Translations under genes and position numbers: made by a program
Shown: positions 3,323 to 15,303 of the stretch, piece after piece
Position numbering within the stretch: position 1 is the stretch's first letter
Layout: each line of letters opens with the position of its first letter
Notes under the pieces: generated by a model
What the model was told of the DNA's origin: nothing
Database searches by the model: none
Seen by the model: only the letters and a program-made list of their open reading frames with translations
Source: Vicinamibacterales bacterium
GTDB lineage: Bacteria > Acidobacteriota > Vicinamibacteria > Vicinamibacterales > CAVVIG01
Length of the DNA stretch: 64,000 nt
Reading direction: 5' to 3'
Assembly (NCBI GenBank): GCA_036004865.1
Contig: DASYQZ010000166.1
Span: 10,921 to 74,920, forward strand

Positions 3323-4594
3323 GTGGACTCTGTGTCTGCGCAGGGTGCCGGGTGCCGCGTGCTTGGTGCCTCGTGCTCGGTGCTGAGTGCCTGGTGCCGG
3401 GTGCTGGGTACGTGGTGCCTGGTGCCGGGTGCCTCGTGCCTCGTTCTGGCGCAGACGCCGCAGCGCCCCGGCCAGATGCCGACGCTGCCGCTGACGCAGC
3501 TCGACGAGCGCGCGCTCGCCGCCGATCTCGATAACCGCACGTTCACGTTGACGTTCGCGCAGCCGGTGCCGGTCAAGGATCTGCTGCTGCTGCTCGTGCG
3601 CGGCACGAACCTCAGCGTCGTGCCCGATCCGGCGATCGGCGGCTCGTTCATCGGCGAGCTGAAGAACGTCACGGTCCGCCAGGCGCTCGGCTTGATCCTG
3701 ACCCCGCTCGGGCTCGACTACTCGGTCGACGGCAACATCATTCGCGTGTTCAGGCGCGAGCCGAGCACGCGCATCTTCGACGTCAACTACATCGCCTCGG
3801 AGCGCAGCGGCGCGGCAATGATCGGCGGGGTTGGCGCGGCCGGCGGCGACCCGGCGGCGCCCAGCTTCGCCAACGTCTCGACGGCAACGAAGGCCGATCT
3901 CTTCGTCGACCTGACGAGAGGCGTGCAGACGCTGCTCTCCGAGCGCGCGGCATTCAACGTCGATCGCAAAGCCGGACTCCTGCAGGTCACCGATTTTCCC
4001 GAGCGTCTCGACCGGGTCGCGCTGTATCTCGAGACGGTGCACGATCGCGTTCATCGTCAGGTGCAAATCGACGCCCGCGTCGTCGAGGTCGAGCTCAACG
4101 ACGAGAAGGCGCCGTCGCTCGACTGGGCCGGGCTCGCGGCGCAATTGATGGCCGATCAGTCGCCGGCCGAGCGCGCCGCCGCGCGGCCGACGCTCACGGG
4201 CATGCGCGTGATCGACGTGCAGAAGCTCCTCGGTCTGATGGCGGCGCAAGGCAAGCTGCTGGTCATGGCCAGCCCCCGTCTCGTGACGCTGAACAACGAG
4301 CCGGCGATCGTGCGCACCGATGCGATCACCATCAGCGTGACGCCGCAGATCGCGCCCGATTCGGCGGTCATGCTGAGCGTCAGCCCGATCGTGAAGGCGC
4401 CGGTCGTTGCAGAGTCCGACATGCTCGCGCGCGTCGCGGACGGCGAGACGCTCGTCATTCCGGGCTTCACACGCGATCGCGAAGTCCGCGAGCGCCGGAA
4501 CCTGGGAATTTCGGGCGGGTGGTTCGGCCGCGGCACGGTCGTCACGCGCAAGCGCGTCGAGGTCGTGATTCTCCTGACGCCGAAGATTCTGTAG
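3323..4594 (+). CDS. Secretin family protein (MshL/GspD/PilQ-like, reduced)
   Basis: STN/N0-like 'LKNVTVRQALGLIL', N3-like domain, 'RQVQIDARVVEVEL', 'SPRLVTLNNEPA', 'VTPQI', 'DGETLVIPG', 'EVVILLTPKIL'. Start codon uncertain. Confidence 0.85.
   Translation: MDSVSAQGAGCRVLGASCSVLSAWCRVLGTWCLVPGASCLVLAQTPQRPGQMPTLPLTQLDERALAADLDNRTFTLTFAQPVPVKDLLLLLVRGTNLSVVPDPAIGGSFIGELKNVTVRQALGLILTPLGLDYSVDGNIIRVFRREPSTRIFDVNYIASERSGAAMIGGVGAAGGDPAAPSFANVSTATKADLFVDLTRGVQTLLSERAAFNVDRKAGLLQVTDFPERLDRVALYLETVHDRVHRQVQIDARVVEVELNDEKAPSLDWAGLAAQLMADQSPAERAAARPTLTGMRVIDVQKLLGLMAAQGKLLVMASPRLVTLNNEPAIVRTDAITISVTPQIAPDSAVMLSVSPIVKAPVVAESDMLARVADGETLVIPGFTRDREVRERRNLGISGGWFGRGTVVTRKRVEVVILLTPKIL
3344..3448 (+). repeat. 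15 x 7-nt tandem repeat (GGTGCCK consensus) within secretin N-terminus
   Basis: GGTGCCG GGTGCCG CGTGCTT GGTGCCT CGTGCTC GGTGCTG AGTGCCT GGTGCCG …; translates as five 7-aa repeats. Confidence 0.85.
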
Positions 4595-4596
4595 CC

Positions 4597-5550
4597 ATGT
4601 ACGAAAACTATTACGGGTTCGCGGAAAAGCCGTTCAGCCTGACGCCGGATCCGAAGTATCTCTATCGCAGCCAGTCGCACGCCAGCGCGTTCGATCTCCT
4701 GCAATACGCCATCCGGCGGCGCGAAGGATTCGTGGTCGTCACCGGCGACATCGGCACTGGCAAGACGACGCTGTGCCGCGCGCTGCTCGAAGAGATCGAT
4801 CGCACGACGTTCACGGCCCTCGTGCTGAATCCCTTCCTGTCAGAAGAGGATCTGCTCAAGCGGATCCTGCAGGACTTCGGCGTCGTCTCGCGCGACGAGA
4901 TGAAGACGGGACGGCTGGCGACCGTCACCAAGCAGGAGCTGATCGACACGCTCTACGACTTCCTGCTGTCGTTGATTCCGCTCAAGGCGAGCGCCGTGCT
5001 CATCATCGACGAGGCGCAGCATCTGCCGCTGCCGGTGCTCGAACAAATTCGCATCCTGTCGAACCTCGAGACCGACAAAGAGAAGCTGCTCCAGATCATT
5101 CTCGTCGGCCAGTTGAACCTGCAGCCGCTGCTGCGCTCGCCGCACCTGCGCCAGCTCGATCAGCGCGTGTCGATTCGCTATCAGCTCGAGCCGCTCGATC
5201 GCGACACCGTCTCGGCATACATCGCGCATCGTTTGACGATTGCCGGCGGCTCGGCGGCTGTCACGTTCACGCCGAAGGCCATCGACGAGGTGCACCGGCT
5301 GTCGGGCGGCATTCCGCGTCTGATCAATCTGATCTGCGATCGCGCGCTGCTCGCCGGCTATTCGCTGCAGACGAATCGCATCACGGACGAGATGGTCGTC
5401 CACGCTGCCAACAGTTTGGACATGGTGCCGCCGCTGAAACAGCGGCTCAGCCAGCGCGCGTCCCTCGTCACAGCGGCCGCAGTCGTATTGCTGGCGTCGG
5501 CGTTCGCCGTGAGCGCGATGACCTACTTGCTGACGCGATTCGCGCCGTGA
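4597..5550 (+). CDS. ExeA/GspA/MshM-like AAA ATPase
   Basis: 'MYENYYGFAEKPFSLTPDP', Walker A GDIGTGKT, Walker B LIIDEAQ, 'GGIPRLINLICDRALL', C-terminal TM helix. ATG lies 2 nt after the secretin stop. Confidence 0.9.
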   Translation: MYENYYGFAEKPFSLTPDPKYLYRSQSHASAFDLLQYAIRRREGFVVVTGDIGTGKTTLCRALLEEIDRTTFTALVLNPFLSEEDLLKRILQDFGVVSRDEMKTGRLATVTKQELIDTLYDFLLSLIPLKASAVLIIDEAQHLPLPVLEQIRILSNLETDKEKLLQIILVGQLNLQPLLRSPHLRQLDQRVSIRYQLEPLDRDTVSAYIAHRLTIAGGSAAVTFTPKAIDEVHRLSGGIPRLINLICDRALLAGYSLQTNRITDEMVVHAANSLDMVPPLKQRLSQRASLVTAAAVVLLASAFAVSAMTYLLTRFAP

Positions 5551-5557
5551 GATTCTC

Positions 5558-6859
5558 GTGAGCGTGATTCTGGATGCGCTGCGCCGCAACAAGTCGGCGG
5601 AGCCCAAGGAAAAAACAGCAGGCGGACGCACGGCGCGCACCGATGCCGTGCTCGCGACGCTTGGCTATCCGCGTCCGCAGCCGTCGCGCGCCGGCGGACT
5701 GTCGCCCGGCAAGATGCTGGTGTACGGCGGCGCCGCGATGGCCATCGGCTTCGTCGGGTTGTCGGCGCTGATTCTGTTCCTCACACCTTCGTCGCCAAGG
5801 CCGTCGAGTGCGCCGCCGCGTCCCGCGCAAACAGCGCGAGGCAGCGCGCCGCTTCCGTCGCGACCGGCTGCGCCGGACGCGCCCATCATGGCGCCGCGGC
5901 TGAGCACGCCGCCTCAACCGCCACCAGTCGCGCCGCGGACCGCGCCGGCGCCAGCGCCCGCGACGCCGACTCCCACGACACCGGCGCCCGCGGCGCAACC
6001 GCAGTCCGCACGAGCGTCGCAGCCGGCCGCCCCTCAGCCCACGACGCCACCGCAGGCGACTTCGACGCCGCCGCCGGCCGCCGCGCGCACGGCGCCTGTC
6101 GCGCCGCGGCCTCCGGCCGCCGAGCGCACGGCGCCTGTCGCGCCGCGGCCTCCGGCCGCCGAGCCGCGACGCGCCGCGACCGAACCGGCACGGCCGCGTC
6201 CATCGGAGTCCGCGACGCCGGCGCCCCGGCGCGCAGCCGTTCCAGCGCGAGAACCCGTGCCGCCTCCTGCGCCGCCGCCGGCCCCGACGCCGCCGCCTGA
6301 AAATCACTTTGCTCTGGCGCTGTACTACCAGCGCGTCGGCGACTACGACAAAGCGCTCGCGCAGTATCGTCAACTGCTCGAACAGAACGACCTGAGCGCC
6401 GAGGTCCACAACAATCTCGGTCTGCTGTACCAGGATCGCGGGCAGATCGACGAAGGCATCAGACAGTTCGAGCGCGCGCTGGCGATCGATCCGACGTATG
6501 TCAAGGCGCACAACAACCTCGGCGTTGCGCTGATGCGATCGAATCGTCTCGACATGGCCGCCGCCGAGTTTCGCGTCGCGCTCGCCGCCGATTCGCGCAA
6601 CGTCGAGTCGCTCGTGAACCTCGCGCTCATTCAGCGGGCCGGCGGTCATGTCGCCGAGGCGCGCGATCTCCTTCGCCGCGCGCTGGCGATCGACCCGCGG
6701 AGTGCCGGCTCGCACTACAACCTGGCGGTGGTCGCCGACGAAAGCGGCGACACGTCGACGGCCATCGAGCATTACCGCGCGTTTCTGCGGTATGGCGCCG
6801 TCACCAACGGGGATCTGGCCGCGCAAGTTCGTGCGCGGCTCGCCTCGCTGGGCTCCTGA
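5558..6859 (+). CDS. TPR protein with N-terminal TM anchor and Pro-rich linker (MshN-like architecture)
   Basis: 'MSVILDALRR' start typical of MshN/GspB-like proteins, TM helix, Pro/Ala linker, several TPRs ('HNNLG' twice, 'HYNLA'). Confidence 0.8.
   Translation: MSVILDALRRNKSAEPKEKTAGGRTARTDAVLATLGYPRPQPSRAGGLSPGKMLVYGGAAMAIGFVGLSALILFLTPSSPRPSSAPPRPAQTARGSAPLPSRPAAPDAPIMAPRLSTPPQPPPVAPRTAPAPAPATPTPTTPAPAAQPQSARASQPAAPQPTTPPQATSTPPPAAARTAPVAPRPPAAERTAPVAPRPPAAEPRRAATEPARPRPSESATPAPRRAAVPAREPVPPPAPPPAPTPPPENHFALALYYQRVGDYDKALAQYRQLLEQNDLSAEVHNNLGLLYQDRGQIDEGIRQFERALAIDPTYVKAHNNLGVALMRSNRLDMAAAEFRVALAADSRNVESLVNLALIQRAGGHVAEARDLLRRALAIDPRSAGSHYNLAVVADESGDTSTAIEHYRAFLRYGAVTNGDLAAQVRARLASLGS
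6085..6164 (+). repeat. Perfect 39-bp tandem duplication in TPR-protein linker
   Basis: GCGCACGGCGCCTGTCGCGCCGCGGCCTCCGGCCGCCGA x2 (RTAPVAPRPPAAE x2). Confidence 0.85.
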
Positions 6860-6889: not shown

Positions 6890-8850
6890 ATGGCCGACCA
6901 GCAACACGCCGAGATCGACGATCTGCTCCGCGAAGACCGGACGTATTCACCGCCGCCCGAGTTTCAGGCGCGCGCGCACGTTCGCGACGAGAGTCTGTAC
7001 GCGGAGGCGCATCGCGATCCCGAAGGTTTCTGGGCGAAGTTCGCGGGCGAGCTCGAATGGTCGCGCCCGTGGGATCAGGTGCTGGACTGGCAGCCGCCGC
7101 ACGCGAAATGGTTCGTCGGCGGACGGATCAACGTCAGCGTCAACTGCCTGGACCGCCACGTCCGCGGACCGCGCCGCAACAAAGCGGCGCTCATCTGGGA
7201 AGGCGAGCCGGGCGATCGCCGCACGCTGACCTACTTCGACCTGCACCGCCAGGTCTCGAAATTCGCCAACGTCCTGAAGTCGCTCGGCGTGAAGAAGGGC
7301 GATCGCGTCGCGCTATACCTGCCGCTCATCCCCGAGCTGGCGATTGCGATGCTCGCCTGCGCGCGCATCGGCGCCATCCACAGCGTCGTCTTCGGCGGCT
7401 TCAGCGCCGAGTCGCTGCGCGATCGCATCAACGATTCGCAATGCCGTCTGCTCGTCACCGCCGACGGCGGCTACCGGCGCGGGCAGATCGTCGGCCTGAA
7501 AAAAGTCGCCGACGAGGCCGTCGCCGACACGCCGTCGATCGAGCACGTGGTCGTCGTGCAGCGCATCGGCGACAAGATCGCGGCGAACATGCAGAGCGGC
7601 CGCGACCACTGGTACCACGACCTGATGAAGGACGCGCCGTTCAAGTCCGAGCCCGAGCCGATGGATGCCGAGGACATGCTCTACATCCTCTACACGTCGG
7701 GCACGACCGGAAAACCGAAGGGCATCGTGCACACGACCGCGGGATATCTGGTCGGTGTGTACGCAACGACGAAGCTCGTCTTCGATCTCAAAGACGATGA
7801 CGTCTTCTGGTGCACGGCGGACATCGGCTGGGTCACCGGCCACAGCTACGTTGTCTACGGGCCGCTGGCCAACGGCGCGACGGTCCTGATGTACGAGGGC
7901 GCGCCGGACTGGCCGCAGAAAGATCGCTTCTGGTCGTTGATCGAGCAGTACGGCGTGACGGTGTTCTACACCGCGCCGACGGCGATTCGCGCGTTCATGC
8001 GCTGGGGGACCGACTGGCCGTCGAAGCGCGACCTGTCGTCGCTCCGCCTGATCGGATCGGTCGGCGAGCCGATCAATCCGGAAGCGTGGATCTGGTACCA
8101 CCGGCATATCGGCGGCGAGCGTTGTCCGGTCGTCGACACGTGGTGGCAAACCGAGACCGGCGCGATCATGATCACACCGCTGCCGGGCGTCACGACGCTG
8201 AAGCCCGGGTCGGCGACGAAGCCGTTTCCCGGCATCGCGGCGGAGATTCGCAACGAGCGCGGCGACATCATAGAGGTCGGCGGCGGCTTTCTCGCGCTCA
8301 CGCGTCCGTGGCCATCGATGCTGCGCGGCATCTACGGCGATCCCGAGCGCTACGCCCGCCAGTACTGGAACAAGTGGGGCAACGCCGTCTACGTCACCGG
8401 CGACGGCGCGAAGCGCGACCCGACGGCTATTTCTGGCTGCTCGGCCGCGTGGACGACGTGATCAACGTGGCGGGACATCGCATCGGCACGATGGAAGTCG
8501 AGAGCGCCCTCGTCGATCATCCGAGCGTCGCCGAAGCGGCCGTCGTCGGCCGCGCGCACGACATCAAAGGTCAGGCGATTGCGGCGTTCGTCACGTTGAA
8601 GGAAGGCGCGCCGGCCGACGCGCACATCGCCGACGCGCTGAAGGATCACGTGGTGAAGAAAATCGGCGCGATCGCGCGACCCGACGACATCCTGTTCGCG
8701 GCCGATCTCCCGAAGACGCGATCGGGGAAGATCATGCGGCGGCTGCTGCGCGACATCGCCGAAGGCAAGGCGCTCGGCGACACCACAACGCTCGCCGATC
8801 CGAACGTGGTCGCGCGGCTGAAGTCGGAGTACGAGGAGCGGGAGGTGTAG
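6890..8850 (+). pseudogene. acs: Acetate--CoA ligase with a single-base frameshift near 8419-8422 (pseudogene or sequence error)
   Basis: Frame 1 gives [11 protein letters not shown], '[11 protein letters not shown]', 'TGDGAKRDP'. The continuation '[20 protein letters not shown]…[11 protein letters not shown]' is in another frame, ending at 8850. Confidence 0.85.
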
Positions 8851-9864
8851 TCACACGGATCCCGCGGTCCGATCCACCGAATAGCCGTCGACGCGCTCGA
8901 CGCGGTTGCGTCCCTGCTGCTTGGCGCGCTCGACCGCGGCCTCGGCATCGGCCATGAGCCGCTCCGGATCGATCACGTCGCCGGTGGCGATTTCGAGGTT
9001 CACGACGGCGGCGCTGACGGTAACCTTCACGGGCTGATCGTTGCGATGATCCTTGAAACCCAGCCGCTCTTCGACCGTCGCGCGCACGCGCTCGGCGAGC
9101 TCGCTCGCGTTGTCCGCCTCGGTCCGCGGCAGCAGGACCACGATGGCATCTTCGGAATAGCGCGCCACCCAATCGTGTTGGCGGAAGTACTTGCGAATCA
9201 GGATGCCGAGGCGCTCGAGAATCCTGTCGCCGACGCCGTAGCCGTGCTCTTTGTTGATCGTCGAGAGGTGATCGACGTCGAAGAGAATCAGCGAGATGGG
9301 ATGGCCGAAGCGTCCGGCACCCTCGAGCTCTTTTGCGAGCACCGCTTCGAGCATGACGCGGGTGTACAGCGTCGTCAGCCGATCGACGATGGCGGCTTCG
9401 ACCGGCTCCTGCTGAAGACGATCGGTGTAGGCCGCGAGCAGATCGAACGACGCGCGCCGGACGACCTGCGCGACGACCGGCCAGTGTTCGCTGGTCGCGC
9501 CGATCGTGTCGCTCAACGCCAATTCGTCCATGACGGTGCGCTCGAGAAGGTAGACGAACGCGAACACCCGCTCGGCGGACAGCGCCCGCTCCAGCGCGAC
9601 GCGATGCAGGTCGGCGACGAAGCCGCTGCGGCTGTCGATCTTCCCCTCGCGCACCGCCACGGCCGTGAGCTGCACGAGAAGATGGCCGACGCGATTACAG
9701 TACTCGGGCTCGAGCATCTCGGTGCCGGTGAACGGAAAGACGGCGACGGTGTCCCACGTCAGCAGGGCGGCGCGATCGAGGATGAGCCCCGAAATCTGCT
9801 GCCGGAGATCGTCCTGCATGGGGGCACCGTCTTCGGCGGCGAAGACGGGGTCGTTGGAATCCAT
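8851..9864 (-). CDS. Degenerate GGDEF-domain protein with helical N-terminal domain
   Basis: 'DRLTTLYTR', 'FDVDHLSTINKEHGYGVGDRIL', 'AKQQGRNRV'. A-site reads RYSEDAI instead of RYGG(D/E)EF. Confidence 0.85.
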   Translation of the reverse strand: MDSNDPVFAAEDGAPMQDDLRQQISGLILDRAALLTWDTVAVFPFTGTEMLEPEYCNRVGHLLVQLTAVAVREGKIDSRSGFVADLHRVALERALSAERVFAFVYLLERTVMDELALSDTIGATSEHWPVVAQVVRRASFDLLAAYTDRLQQEPVEAAIVDRLTTLYTRVMLEAVLAKELEGAGRFGHPISLILFDVDHLSTINKEHGYGVGDRILERLGILIRKYFRQHDWVARYSEDAIVVLLPRTEADNASELAERVRATVEERLGFKDHRNDQPVKVTVSAAVVNLEIATGDVIDPERLMADAEAAVERAKQQGRNRVERVDGYSVDRTAGSV

Positions 9865-9990: not shown

Positions 9991-12303
9991 GTGGCCACGC
10001 GCGTCGGGATTGAGCTGTCGCCGGCGGCCTGCCGCGTCATCGAGATCGAGGGCGGACTGCCGTGGGTTCGGCGGGCACCCGAGACGACAGTTCTGTCATT
10101 CGATGTGCTGCCGCCGGCGGGACCCGAGACGAGGGCGAAGCTCGAGACGCTGCGGAAACGGTCGGCCGCGGTTGTCGTCTGGGGCGTGCCGAGCGATCAC
10201 CGCCAGGTGATCGTGACCAACCGATCGTACGAAGCGATGCGGCGCGAGGCGCTGGTGGCGCTGACGGGCGCCGGCATCGAGACGCGCGGCGTGCTCGCGG
10301 ACATCGCGCCGGCCGGCGACGGAAAAGATCGCTCCCCGCGGCGGCCCGTGGTCGTCGCGCTGGCCGCGGCCGCTCCGATGACCGCGGCGCTCGAGCCGCT
10401 CACGAACGCCGGCATCCATGTCCGGTCTGTTCTGACGCCGGCCGCCGCGCTCACGTCATTGGCGCGCACACGGTGCGAGTTCGCCGTGCCGGGGTCGATC
10501 GAAGCGTACGTGGCGCTCGACAAAACCGCGACGTGTATCGCGCTCGTTCGGGACGGCGCGTTGATTACCGCACGCGAGCTGTCGTGGGGTTACGTCGACG
10601 ACGTCGGCCACACCGAGCCGCGGCGAGTCGACGACATCACGAGGCGGCTCGCCGACGAGCTGTCGGAATTCTTCGGGGCCATTGGCGCGTCGCCGTCGGC
10701 GGTCGGTCAGATTTGCGTGTGCGGTCCGCTGCCCGAGCTGCGCAGCATGACCGCACGGCTCACGCAGCAACTCGACGTCGAAGTCGAGCCACTGGATTCG
10801 CAGTACGCCATCGATTCCGAGGAGCTGTTCGAGCACTCCGTTGACTTTCGCGAGCGCAGCGCCGAGATGCGTCTCGCATGGGCGGCGGCCACCGACTGGC
10901 CGCCGGCGATCAATCTGCTGCGCGCGCGCAAGCGTCAGTCGACGAAGACGGCGCTCGCGCGCGCCGCGCTGGTCGCGGGCGCAGTCGCAGGATTGGCAAT
11001 CGGCTGGCAGGTGCAGCAGAGTGCGTGGTGGCGATCGCGCGCGGCGGTGCTGATTGCGCGCGTGACGCCGCGCGCCAGGCCGGCCGCGCCTGCCACGCGC
11101 GCGCCGCAACCTACGGTCTCGCCGAAGCCGCCGCCGTCGCCGGGGTCGCCGGGGCCGAGCCCGGCAACGACGGCGACGAAAACGGTTCCGCCCGCGACGC
11201 CGCCCTCAGCAGCCGCGACGAAACCGCCGACGCCGGTGTCACCGCCGGTCGTGGCGACGAAACCGCCGACGCCGGCAACGACAGCGCCGACAACGCCTCC
11301 CGTGTCGGCCACGAAACCGCTGCCACCGCCGGTGACGACGATGAAACCGTCGCCGCCAGTGTCACCGCCGATCGCGGCAACGAAGACGCCAGTCCCGACA
11401 ACGCCGGCGCCGACAACGCCGCCGGTGGCAGCCGCGAAGCCGTCTGCACCACCGGCGACGACGACGCAACCGGCGGCGCCTGTGTCCCCGCCGATCGCGG
11501 CGACGAAGACACAGACGCAAACGCCGCCCTCGCCATCCGTGGCGGCCACGAAACCGGCGCAGCCGCCGGTGACGACGACGAAACCATCGGCGCCAGTCTC
11601 ACCGCCAATCGCGGCGACGAAGACGCCAGCGCCGGCAACGCCGCCTGTGACGGCCGCGAAGCCGTCTCCACCACCGGTGACGACGACGAAACCGACGCCG
11701 CCCGTCTCACCGCCGATCGCGGCGACGAAACCAACGGCGCCCGTCTCACCGCCGATCGCCGCGACGAAACCGGCGCCGCCATCACTACCGCCGTCGACGC
11801 CGCGATCATCTCCGGCTGTACCGCCGGGCAGAGAAGTCGCGACGCCGCCGCCCACGAGCGCACCACCGGCGGCACGTCGAGAGCCGGAACGTGCGCCGAC
11901 CACGCGTACTGAACCGAAGCCGACGCCGACAGTGCTGGCGCCGGCTGCGACGCCGCCTCGCGCCGCGCCGAGCGTTGCGCCGCCGCCGCCCGCGGCGCCA
12001 AGCGCCGCACCGCCGGTTCGACCTCAGCCGCCGGTCGAACCCTCGCCGCCGGCTCGACGAGACGAGCCCGCACCTGAGCCGGCGCCGCGACGCGTTGCAC
12101 CCGCGCGGCCGCCGGAAGTCGCGACGCCGTTCGACGCTTCTCTCGCGACGATTCTGTATTCGCCGGATCGAAAGCTCGCGATCATCGACGGCCGGATCGT
12201 TGGGGTAGGTGACGAAGTACGCGGCGCTCGCGTGACCGACATCACGCCAAACGCTGTGTTTCTTCGAGATGCCCAAGGTAGGCTGCGTCGGCTCAGTCGT
12301 TGA
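9991..12303 (+). CDS. PilM-like/PilN-N-terminus fusion with Pro/Thr stalk and C-terminal MshK/GspB-like domain
   Basis: 'RVGIELSPAACRVIE' PilM-like start, 'INLL'+basic+TM segment, about 350 aa Pro/Thr repeats, C-terminal 'ILYSPDRKLAIIDGRIVGVGDEVRGARVTDITPNAV'. Confidence 0.65.
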   Translation: MATRVGIELSPAACRVIEIEGGLPWVRRAPETTVLSFDVLPPAGPETRAKLETLRKRSAAVVVWGVPSDHRQVIVTNRSYEAMRREALVALTGAGIETRGVLADIAPAGDGKDRSPRRPVVVALAAAAPMTAALEPLTNAGIHVRSVLTPAAALTSLARTRCEFAVPGSIEAYVALDKTATCIALVRDGALITARELSWGYVDDVGHTEPRRVDDITRRLADELSEFFGAIGASPSAVGQICVCGPLPELRSMTARLTQQLDVEVEPLDSQYAIDSEELFEHSVDFRERSAEMRLAWAAATDWPPAINLLRARKRQSTKTALARAALVAGAVAGLAIGWQVQQSAWWRSRAAVLIARVTPRARPAAPATRAPQPTVSPKPPPSPGSPGPSPATTATKTVPPATPPSAAATKPPTPVSPPVVATKPPTPATTAPTTPPVSATKPLPPPVTTMKPSPPVSPPIAATKTPVPTTPAPTTPPVAAAKPSAPPATTTQPAAPVSPPIAATKTQTQTPPSPSVAATKPAQPPVTTTKPSAPVSPPIAATKTPAPATPPVTAAKPSPPPVTTTKPTPPVSPPIAATKPTAPVSPPIAATKPAPPSLPPSTPRSSPAVPPGREVATPPPTSAPPAARREPERAPTTRTEPKPTPTVLAPAATPPRAAPSVAPPPPAAPSAAPPVRPQPPVEPSPPARRDEPAPEPAPRRVAPARPPEVATPFDASLATILYSPDRKLAIIDGRIVGVGDEVRGARVTDITPNAVFLRDAQGRLRRLSR
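11070..12120 (+). repeat. Coding Pro/Thr-rich repeat tract (PVSPPIAATK)
   Basis: Five PVSPPIAATK copies plus variants (PVSPPVVATK, PPVTTTKP). Boundaries approximate. Confidence 0.8.
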
Positions 12304-12453: not shown

Positions 12454-14487
<2,034 letters not shown>

Positions 14488-15303
14488 GTGGCGCTCAAGA
14501 ACTATTACGAGCTGCTCGAGCTCCCGCCGACGGCGACGGCAGACGAAATCAAGCGAGCGTTCCGCGCGCAAATCGCCCGCTACCATCCCGATAAAGTCCA
14601 GCACCTCGGCAAGGAATTCCAGGACATGGCGGCCGACCGCGCCGCCGAGCTGACCGAGGCGTACCGAATCCTCTCCGACGAAGGGCGGCGTGCGGAGTAC
14701 GACCGCGCATCGGCGGCTGCGGGGACCGACACCGCCGGGAGCGCGGCCGCGAGCGCGGCGCCGCGGCCCGATGCCGGCGCCGGGCACGCCGCTCCGCCTC
14801 CACCGCCCCCACCGCCGGACACCGAGCCTCACGTCTCGAAGGGGCCGCAGTTCTCGCAGGAGCGCGCGACGCGCGATCAGTTCGTCCGGAAGGCGCTGAT
14901 CGGTCGGCTGCGGCAGGCGCTCGACGTCATCGGCGGCTACGACGAGTCGGAGGCGCGCAGCTTCGATCTGGCCTGGACACCCAAGAGAAAGATGTTCGCG
15001 AGCGGCAAAGGACCGCGTCTGCTGGCGCGGTTCGTGTCGCGCGTCGACGGCGAAGCGATCGCGGATGCGTGGATGCAGGCGATGAAGTGGGCCGGGAGCG
15101 AGGAAGTCTCCGTGCTGCTCATCGGCTCGACGATGGCGCCGGCGGGCGAGCTGGCAAAGGCGATCGCGGAGCAGCGGAGGAAATCGCGCGGCGCCAGGGC
15201 GACGCTGATTCCGGTCGACGCGAACAGTTGGGATGCGCACCTGCCGACCGATGCTCCGCCAATCGCAAAGACGCTGCTCTCACGCGTCAAGAGCGGCGCA
15301 TAA
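14488..15303 (+). CDS. J-domain (DnaJ-like) protein with unknown C-terminal alpha/beta domain
   Basis: 'NYYELLEL…EIKRAFR…YHPDK…EAYRILSD…RAEYD'. Starts immediately after the ATPase stop. Confidence 0.85.

Follow-up and report, generated by a model that had tools for sequence, protein, structure and literature searches.

The HR domains of GspC, PilP and GspB bind the N0 domain of secretins (PMC4471445; PMC9239104), and that of GspB anchors secretin N0 to the inner membrane (PMC9239104). GspB acts with GspA, and both GspAB fusions and GspB proteins with extra cytoplasmic domains are known (PMC9239104). On the cytoplasmic side, GspL is the orthologue of PilMN (PMC4471445), and MshI is listed as GspL/PilN-like (PMC4624765). 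It is debated whether the role of PilMNOP-type complexes ends at linking the two membranes or extends to driving pilin assembly (PMC4471445). Here we describe a gene that joins the two ends of such a complex in one polypeptide, the connector. It lies in a 64,000-nucleotide stretch of DNA from a Vicinamibacterales bacterium (GenBank assembly GCA_036004865.1, contig DASYQZ010000166.1, positions 10,921 to 74,920; hereafter the window). Every part of the protein is known, and the single chain from PilM to HR appears to be new as a combination. The preliminary description of this DNA had not recognised the architecture, and we likewise found no description of such a chain, of this locus or of secretins without gates in the main texts of the open-access literature. 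The folds and layout of the chain, the gene series in its relatives, the loss of cognate PilC and pilins and the purifying selection on its parts are direct observations. From them we favour, with about an even chance of being right, a slack one-chain tether that would run from the inner membrane to secretin N0 in the manner of GspB or GspC, and would not be a working equivalent of PilMNOP.

The connector gene and its parts are as follows.

9991..12303, + strand: single-chain connector gene, 770 amino acids (aa), GTG start, open frame, 318 homologues at E<=1e-3
9991..10905, + strand: predicted PilM-fold cytoplasmic domain (aa 1-305) with altered nucleotide motifs and no counterpart of PilM segment 238-284 (profile, AlphaFold2 (AF2), Foldseek)
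10909..10920, + strand: INLL, a PilN-type peptide in cis (aa 307-310; motif read, homologue conservation, composition test)
10921..11007, + strand: basic run and predicted transmembrane helix (aa 311-339), probably N-in/C-out (hydropathy)
11008..12126, + strand: Pro/Ala/Thr stalk, aa 340-712, 373 aa (composition, tandem repeats)
12127..12300, + strand: predicted HR (GspC-HR/PilP/GspB-type) beta domain, aa 713-770, 58 aa (AF2, VIA, Foldseek, Pfam)

A profile built from 15 N-domain sequences matched Thermus PilM (2ych, E 9e-13) and Myxococcus PilM (E 5e-5) in the Protein Data Bank. When the AF2 model of the domain (predicted local distance difference test, pLDDT, 90.6) was submitted to Foldseek, ranks 1 to 10 were all PilM chains, headed by the PilM:PilN1-12 structure 5eou (E 5.5e-19, TM-score 0.73), with cyto-GspL ranking lower (E 5e-8). 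As modelled, the domain has the actin-like PilM fold including subdomain 1C, as had been proposed from the sequence. Single-sequence Pfam and NCBIfam scans of aa 1-345 gave no PilM (PF11104) match; one relative with the three-gene form described below scored 24.2 against a cut-off of 27. In the alignment to PilM, both phosphate motifs are substituted and PilM residues 238-284, which we take to be subdomain 2B (the names 1C and 2B are both used on this assumption), have no counterpart. Judged from these two changes, ATP binding by the PilM-like domain would be unlikely.

The domain was said to be followed by INLL, basic residues and a transmembrane helix. The motif and the basic run (aa 311-319, just before the most hydrophobic segment, aa 320-339) are present, and the motif with its next residue reads INLLR, not INLLP. 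By composition INLL is expected 0.0004 times. A search with aa 1-345 matched the 318 proteins, of which 120 (the query and 119 others) were examined; among these N, L and L are conserved in 115, 119 and 115. The helix remains a prediction, with a modest Kyte-Doolittle value of 1.7 over 19 aa; family medians are 1.6-1.7, against 2.15 in the PilMN proteins of three-gene loci of family f3 (f1, f3, f5, f6, f11, f14 and f19 are family labels, and G and L numbers denote genomes and loci). Subdomain 1C and NLL are lost together in 19 of 19 f19 chains and kept together in 11 of 11 f1 chains, these being related genomes and not independent.

The stalk was put at about 350 residues of Pro/Thr repeats and the tip at about 55. 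We find a Pro-rich stalk of 373 aa that is also rich in alanine (32% P, 18.5% A, 15% T), in which degenerate tandem arrays with units of 39-123 bp occupy a part (11216-11780), and a tip of 58 aa; the tip string quoted earlier is present in the translated open reading frame 9991-12303. As polyproline, the stalk would by calculation reach about 115 nm. A survey of relatives, proposed with the same description, showed that the layout of PilM domain, INLL, transmembrane helix, stalk and HR tip is common to 114 of the 120 close homologues listed, with stalks of 85-373 aa (median 188), that of the query being the longest. This fourfold variation in length rules out the stalk as a molecular ruler.

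For the tip, VIA alignment of the AF2 model (pLDDT 87.5) gave GspC-HR (3oss; Z 9.8, root-mean-square deviation 1.3, 58 residues aligned), PilP (Z 7.7) and GspB (Z 7.0), and the top nine rows were all HR-family. The best Foldseek match was GspB (4wfw), but none reached E<=1e-3. Against Pfam T2SSB (PF16537) the query tip scored 16.1 bits, below the cut-off of 28.4, and weak matches were obtained for 19 of 31 tips (best E 1.2e-5). The modelled tip has the HR beta-sandwich fold of GspC-HR, PilP and GspB, the class to which it had been assigned. A match to CdsD_C (E 5e-6) was read as a resemblance between small beta domains, there being no SctD context. The tip profile matched the GspC-like protein of the genome's own type II secretion system (T2SS) weakly (probability 25%).

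The likeness to GspL, MshI and PilM+PilN lies in the PilM-fold cytoplasmic domain, the NLL peptide and the transmembrane segment in one chain. In contrast to those proteins, the ferredoxin-like periplasmic domain is replaced here by a disordered stalk and an HR domain: the region after the transmembrane segment is Pro-rich and of low complexity, and no ferredoxin-like PilN domain was found in it, nor any match to the PilN-domain profile of the relatives. Profiles built from the relatives find the PilN-PilO periplasmic dimer domains in neither chain nor locus, and the locus has no PilO/GspM partner. GspC-HR and PilP, the best structural matches of the tip, resemble the connector in their disordered arm and HR domain; the connector differs from them in that it is not a lipoprotein, has no PDZ domain and no PilN/PilO to bind, and is fused to a cytoplasmic component. 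With GspB/OutB/ExeB it shares a transmembrane segment (predicted here), a variable linker and a C-terminal HR domain, beside an ExeA-like ATPase (a gspA-type neighbour). Here, however, the cytoplasmic domain has the PilM fold, the tip falls below the Pfam T2SSB cut-off, and the chain descends from a gene at the PilP/GspC position of the cluster.

The gene is genuine and conserved in Vicinamibacterales. An assembly chimera or frameshift artefact is ruled out, since the same tip ends 114 of the 120 proteins and one-frame loci were found in a genome scan, in which PilM and tip share one frame at 55 of 80 loci; the remaining six homologues end within stalk-like or off-frame sequence. Source labels and record titles of the homologues are mostly Acidobacteria or Vicinamibacterales, and the nearest ESM Atlas clusters are labelled hypothetical Acidobacteriota proteins. 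N-domain matches occur in 67 of 251 genomes of the order and in 10 of 301 genomes of the phylum; in the phylum scan the tip was in none of the seven weak N-domain matches outside the order. Three f5 loci (L069, L102, L118) hold PilM-like remnants that end right after the domain, without transmembrane segment, NLL or subdomain 1C, beside acs.

We annotated 76 loci (the window and 75 stretches around N-domain matches) with profiles built from those loci. Eighteen have a three-gene form, 11 have PilMN and a PilO-HR fusion, 35 have an in-frame single chain, one holds a deletion fragment and was left out, and the remaining 11 are broken or incomplete. The full form (18 loci, some cut by contig ends) comprises pilins, a PilMN fusion, PilO, a protein of about 168 aa with transmembrane segment, stalk and HR domain, a sensor/regulator pair, an ATPase, PilC and a pilin. 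The two-gene form (11 loci) has PilMN and PilO-HR, no PilC, and a single pilin in one genome. Single-chain loci belong to f1, f11, f14 and f19 and to one f6 genome, and in them the connector occupies the position of the PilMN, PilO and small HR trio. In a tree of 38 rows, chosen from 73 for spread and rooted on five canonical PilM sequences, the three-gene forms are basal and a single origin of all single chains is rejected (approximately unbiased (AU) test, p 2e-5); with the f6 genome excluded, the other single chains form one weakly supported group (76/78). A quick-mode tree of all 73 rows without outgroup suggested more origins, and we relied on the rooted tree. The single chain is derived and arose at least twice. 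The fusion of PilM, NLL and transmembrane segment is inherited from a GspL/MshI-like ancestor; what is new is its connection to the HR tip.

Among the three-gene relatives, L056, L058 and L064 carry an MSH-like cluster with arrays of large GspG-like pilins, as many as 14 per genome, together with a sensor/sigma-54 regulator pair; the cluster is apparently undescribed. A PilM-PilN-PilO triple fusion (886-921 aa) occurs at one three-gene locus (L057, G116) and in one library protein (P0226); it could be real or reflect a lost stop codon.

The forms thus make up a natural deletion series of three genes, two genes and one chain. Cognate PilC (at least 54% identity) is present in 12 of 64 genomes, all with the three-gene form, and the other 52 have only matches of 26-35%. 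It is absent in 34 of the 35 single-chain genomes, the exception being G189. The cognate pilin profile, applied to at most 44 candidates per genome, finds nothing in 33 of the 35 carriers, the exceptions being G189 (nine) and G255 (one fragment). G189 has both a three-gene cluster and a single chain (L064, L065) and one secretin of this clade. Loss of the PilN and PilO domains is confined to genomes that have also lost the cognate pilins and PilC (one genome retains both forms), and the PilM and HR ends persist under selection. In this way the series sets connection apart from assembly and offers a minimal connector for experiments; its hosts belong to an abundant group that is mostly uncultured, so that work on its function will call for heterologous tests. 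A precedent for alignment-complex parts outliving pilus loss is Helicobacter pylori, which keeps PilMNO without pili (10.1101/2023.04.27.537399). There, PilM, PilN and PilO are separate and have no secretin link, whereas the chain described here has shed the PilN/PilO domains and retained the putative secretin-binding end.

The preliminary description had gone further and suggested that the chain may replace the whole PilM-N-O-P complex. Extended to a pilus passing through this secretin from borrowed PilC and pilins, this would be distinctly unlikely. Both end domains are indeed carried and the position of the trio is occupied; MSH loci are thought to borrow their prepilin peptidase from other systems (PMC6668835), and a fibre could keep a gate-less secretin filled. 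The proposal is nevertheless overstated. The chain lacks both of the domains that contact pilin, those of PilN and PilO (PMC4471445), and the part it does share with GspL was inherited; cognate PilC and pilins are absent; a polyproline stalk of about 115 nm, fourfold variable among relatives, in a periplasm of about 30 nm (PMC9239104) would be poor for force transmission; and the adjacent ATPase is missing at a strict threshold in 17 of 35 carriers. The canonical machinery is also kept. All 64 genomes have one or two canonical PilC/GspF genes, canonical PilM is present in five of five near-complete genomes, pilM-N-O-P-Q is intact in the three loci read, two of them from carriers, and T2SS L/M/C-like genes are complete in the carriers examined. 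The genome of the window (74% complete) has PilB, PilT and PilC elsewhere and no canonical PilM or PilO; this absence is uninformative and was not used.

The genes around the connector in the window are these.

3323..4594, + strand: shortened MshL-like secretin with a conserved N0 (3485-3769) and only turns in place of the two gate hairpins (4292-4351, 4373-4432) (NCBIfam, alignment)
4597..5550, + strand: ExeA/MshM-like AAA protein (AAA_22), predicted C-terminal transmembrane helix, no periplasmic domain (domain scan)
5558..6859, + strand: MshN-like protein with predicted transmembrane helix, Pro-rich linker and tetratricopeptide repeats (TPRs) (domain scan)
6890..8850, upstream of the connector: acetyl-CoA synthetase in two frames (6890-8461, 8449-8850)
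8851..9864, - strand: degenerate GGDEF protein, active-site motif replaced, RxxD kept (domain scan and sequence)
12454..14487, + strand: PilB-like ATPase with a cyclic di-GMP (c-di-GMP)-binding MshEN motif and a C-terminal double zinc ribbon (NF053729 over cut-off)
14488..15303, + strand: J-domain protein that travels with the ATPase (locus annotation)

The mannose-sensitive haemagglutinin (MSHA, or MSH) pilus cluster of Vibrio is made of the same gene types (PMC4624765). The secretin, whose best NCBIfam match is MshL, and the ExeA/MshM-like AAA protein are candidate counterparts of MshL and MshM, and the MshN-like TPR protein and the MshEN ATPase are further likenesses; the three-gene relatives share PilMN, PilO, PilC and pilins in addition. 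The MshL score is under the cut-off of 250, being 86 here and 212 in the full form. Unlike the Vibrio cluster, this locus has no pilin and no PilC and its secretin has no gates, and the pilins of the relatives are GspG-like. The mandatory genes of an MSH system are mshA, E, G, L and M (PMC6668835); with neither a platform (MshG) nor a major pilin (MshA) of its own, the locus falls outside these systems.

Secretin gate hairpins have been described (PMC7545093), and we placed the gate segments by alignment to the hairpins of PilQ and GspD. They measure 37 and 23 residues in nine of nine three-gene secretins and in seven of eight two-gene secretins, the eighth being frameshifted. Among 20 intact secretins of single-chain loci, the first segment has 37 residues in G189 (second 23), 29-35 in eight and at most 17 in eleven (f1 and f19); in the window the segments have 6 and 8 residues. 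Shortening apparently arose in f1 and f19 separately, and gate hairpins shrunk to turns in two families bear on how secretins are sealed. Loss of pilins cannot by itself account for the erosion, because gates are full-length in two-gene loci that lack pilins. G189 is the sole single-chain locus with full-length gates. In the window secretin (4292-4432) the hinge glycine is missing together with both hairpins.

While gates erode, secretin N0 remains 73-87% identical within f1. Pairwise ratios of non-synonymous to synonymous substitution (dN/dS) against eight f1 relatives are 0.23-0.54 for the PilM domain, 0.07-0.24 for the tip, 0.38-0.78 for the stalk and 0.07-0.13 for the ATPase; two housekeeping neighbours give 0.09-0.31. 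For the shortened barrel the ratio is 0.14 against the closest relative and 0.24-0.58 against ten others. All parts, including the secretin without gates, are under purifying selection. These values bear on the idea that the fusion marks one deletion in the gradual breakdown of an MSH-like cluster, the chain being a slowly decaying relic with little current function. Every module has been lost independently across the order, f5 genomes keep a PilM fragment only, 21 of 30 f1 genomes of one sample have no match, and gates, tail and subdomain 1C erode in several lineages. However, four families retain the open frame and the tip, at identities that fall to about 30%, and ratios well below 1 for tip, PilM domain, N0 and shortened barrel argue against a plain relic, an account that we hold to be a shade less probable still than a full replacement of PilMNOP.

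In the preferred reading, a GspB/GspC-like tether, the start of a GspL/MshI-like pilMN gene would have been joined in frame to the stalk and HR domain of the small downstream gene, the join deleting the PilN and PilO periplasmic domains. The PilM-like domain would clasp its own NLL peptide, with no ATP bound, and would offer a docking site in the cytoplasm; its likely partner there is the adjacent PilB-like, c-di-GMP-sensing ATPase in genomes that keep it. One predicted transmembrane helix would lead into a disordered stalk far longer than needed, and the HR tip would bind a secretin at its N0 domain, the neighbouring MshL-like secretin being the likeliest partner. The chain would then do GspB/GspC-like work, anchoring or assembling the secretin from the inner membrane alongside the ExeA-like and TPR proteins. 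The role of a PilN/PilO ring in pilin handling and force transmission would not be performed, and the module served would build no pilus of its own.

The secretin side of this proposal accords with the occurrence of secretins of this clade in 26 of 35 carriers and 3 of 15 non-carriers; four of the nine misses are contig breaks or a frameshift, and five f19 carriers appear to have none. The link from ATPase to secretin drawn in the preliminary description is weaker at its ATPase end. At the strict threshold the ATPase clade is found in 18 of 35 carriers, 2 of 15 f1 non-carriers and none of nine f3 genomes.

Several observations weigh against the preferred reading. The adjacent ATPase is present in only those 18 carriers, persists without the connector in G003 and G008, forms a clade separate from the ATPase of the three-gene cluster (38-42% identity; two genomes shown in the ATPase tree hold both clades) and has a promoter-like site just before its gene. 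Three genomes keep secretin, ExeA and TPR protein without any connector. The predicted transmembrane helix is only moderately hydrophobic, and NLL is absent in 7 of 15 f3 PilMN proteins that retain 1C. Finally, the near-complete f19 genomes G270, G197, G236, G209 and G246 appear to carry the chain without this secretin; four of these loci are contiguous, and the contig of G209 is short. Since the tip is conserved there (dN/dS 0.22-0.25 among three of them) and the five genomes hold 6-9 other secretin matches, its partner in these genomes may be another secretin. The parts of the module are loosely coupled, and related genomes are not independent observations.

The conserved tip in those f19 genomes also suits an auxiliary arm of the canonical type IVa pilus or T2SS, in which the tip would sit on PilQ or GspD and the PilM-like domain would recruit a second c-di-GMP-controlled motor for canonical PilC, the neighbouring secretin being secondary. 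PilB-like motors act on a PilC-type platform, and canonical PilC/GspF genes are kept in all 64 genomes. With 51% identity to the genome's partial PilB and 36% to GspE, the ATPase is nearer to PilB than to GspE or to the three-gene ATPase; it keeps its Walker motifs and has the low dN/dS of 0.07-0.13. But canonical pilM-N-O-P-Q and T2SS L/M/C-like genes are complete in the carriers examined, leaving no gap to fill, the chain lies downstream of the MshL-like secretin at most loci, and the secretin-less genomes also lack the ATPase. We consider such an arm rather unlikely, while placing it first among the alternatives to a tether.

The same genomes bear on a narrower role, that of an ExeB-like partner of the ExeA-like ATPase only, in which the chain would be a GspAB-type secretin-assembly factor with the PilM domain as passenger. 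ExeA is encoded in the same cluster and remains next to the chain in two genomes that have lost the secretin, G236 and G246, and the precedents of GspB acting with GspA and of GspB proteins with extra cytoplasmic domains (PMC9239104) fit. Yet the supposed passenger is under purifying selection, the lengths of ExeA tails and of stalks do not clearly covary, and the chain occurs without ExeA in the locus in G270, G197 and G209. This role appears highly improbable.

The tether could also belong to a machine with a new job. A gate-less open pore, a single chain and a c-di-GMP-controlled PilB-like motor, all derived from an MSH-like pilus, might form a trans-envelope machine free of pilins and platform, serving for example polymer passage or the relay of surface signals. 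We regard this as unlikely, somewhat more so than an auxiliary arm and somewhat less so than a full replacement. Secretins used for slime export have been reported in a preprint.

Some features of the neighbouring genes deserve mention. The degenerate GGDEF protein is likely a c-di-GMP receptor, judging from its residues. Together with the zinc-ribbon PilB-like ATPase and the J-domain protein (8851-9864, 12454-15303) it persists without the connector in G003, G008 and G268, and this module has the look of a motor unit of its own under c-di-GMP control. Here the ExeA-like protein stops behind its transmembrane helix, but it has a periplasmic tail of about 170-200 aa in many relatives (with a SPOR match in one scanned); no relation of its length to stalk length was evident. 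The split frames of the acetyl-CoA synthetase are probably an assembly error, and this gene adjoins the PilM-like gene in most reduced loci, even without secretin and ATPase. The MshN-like TPR protein (5558-6859) has a Pro-rich stalk of its own.

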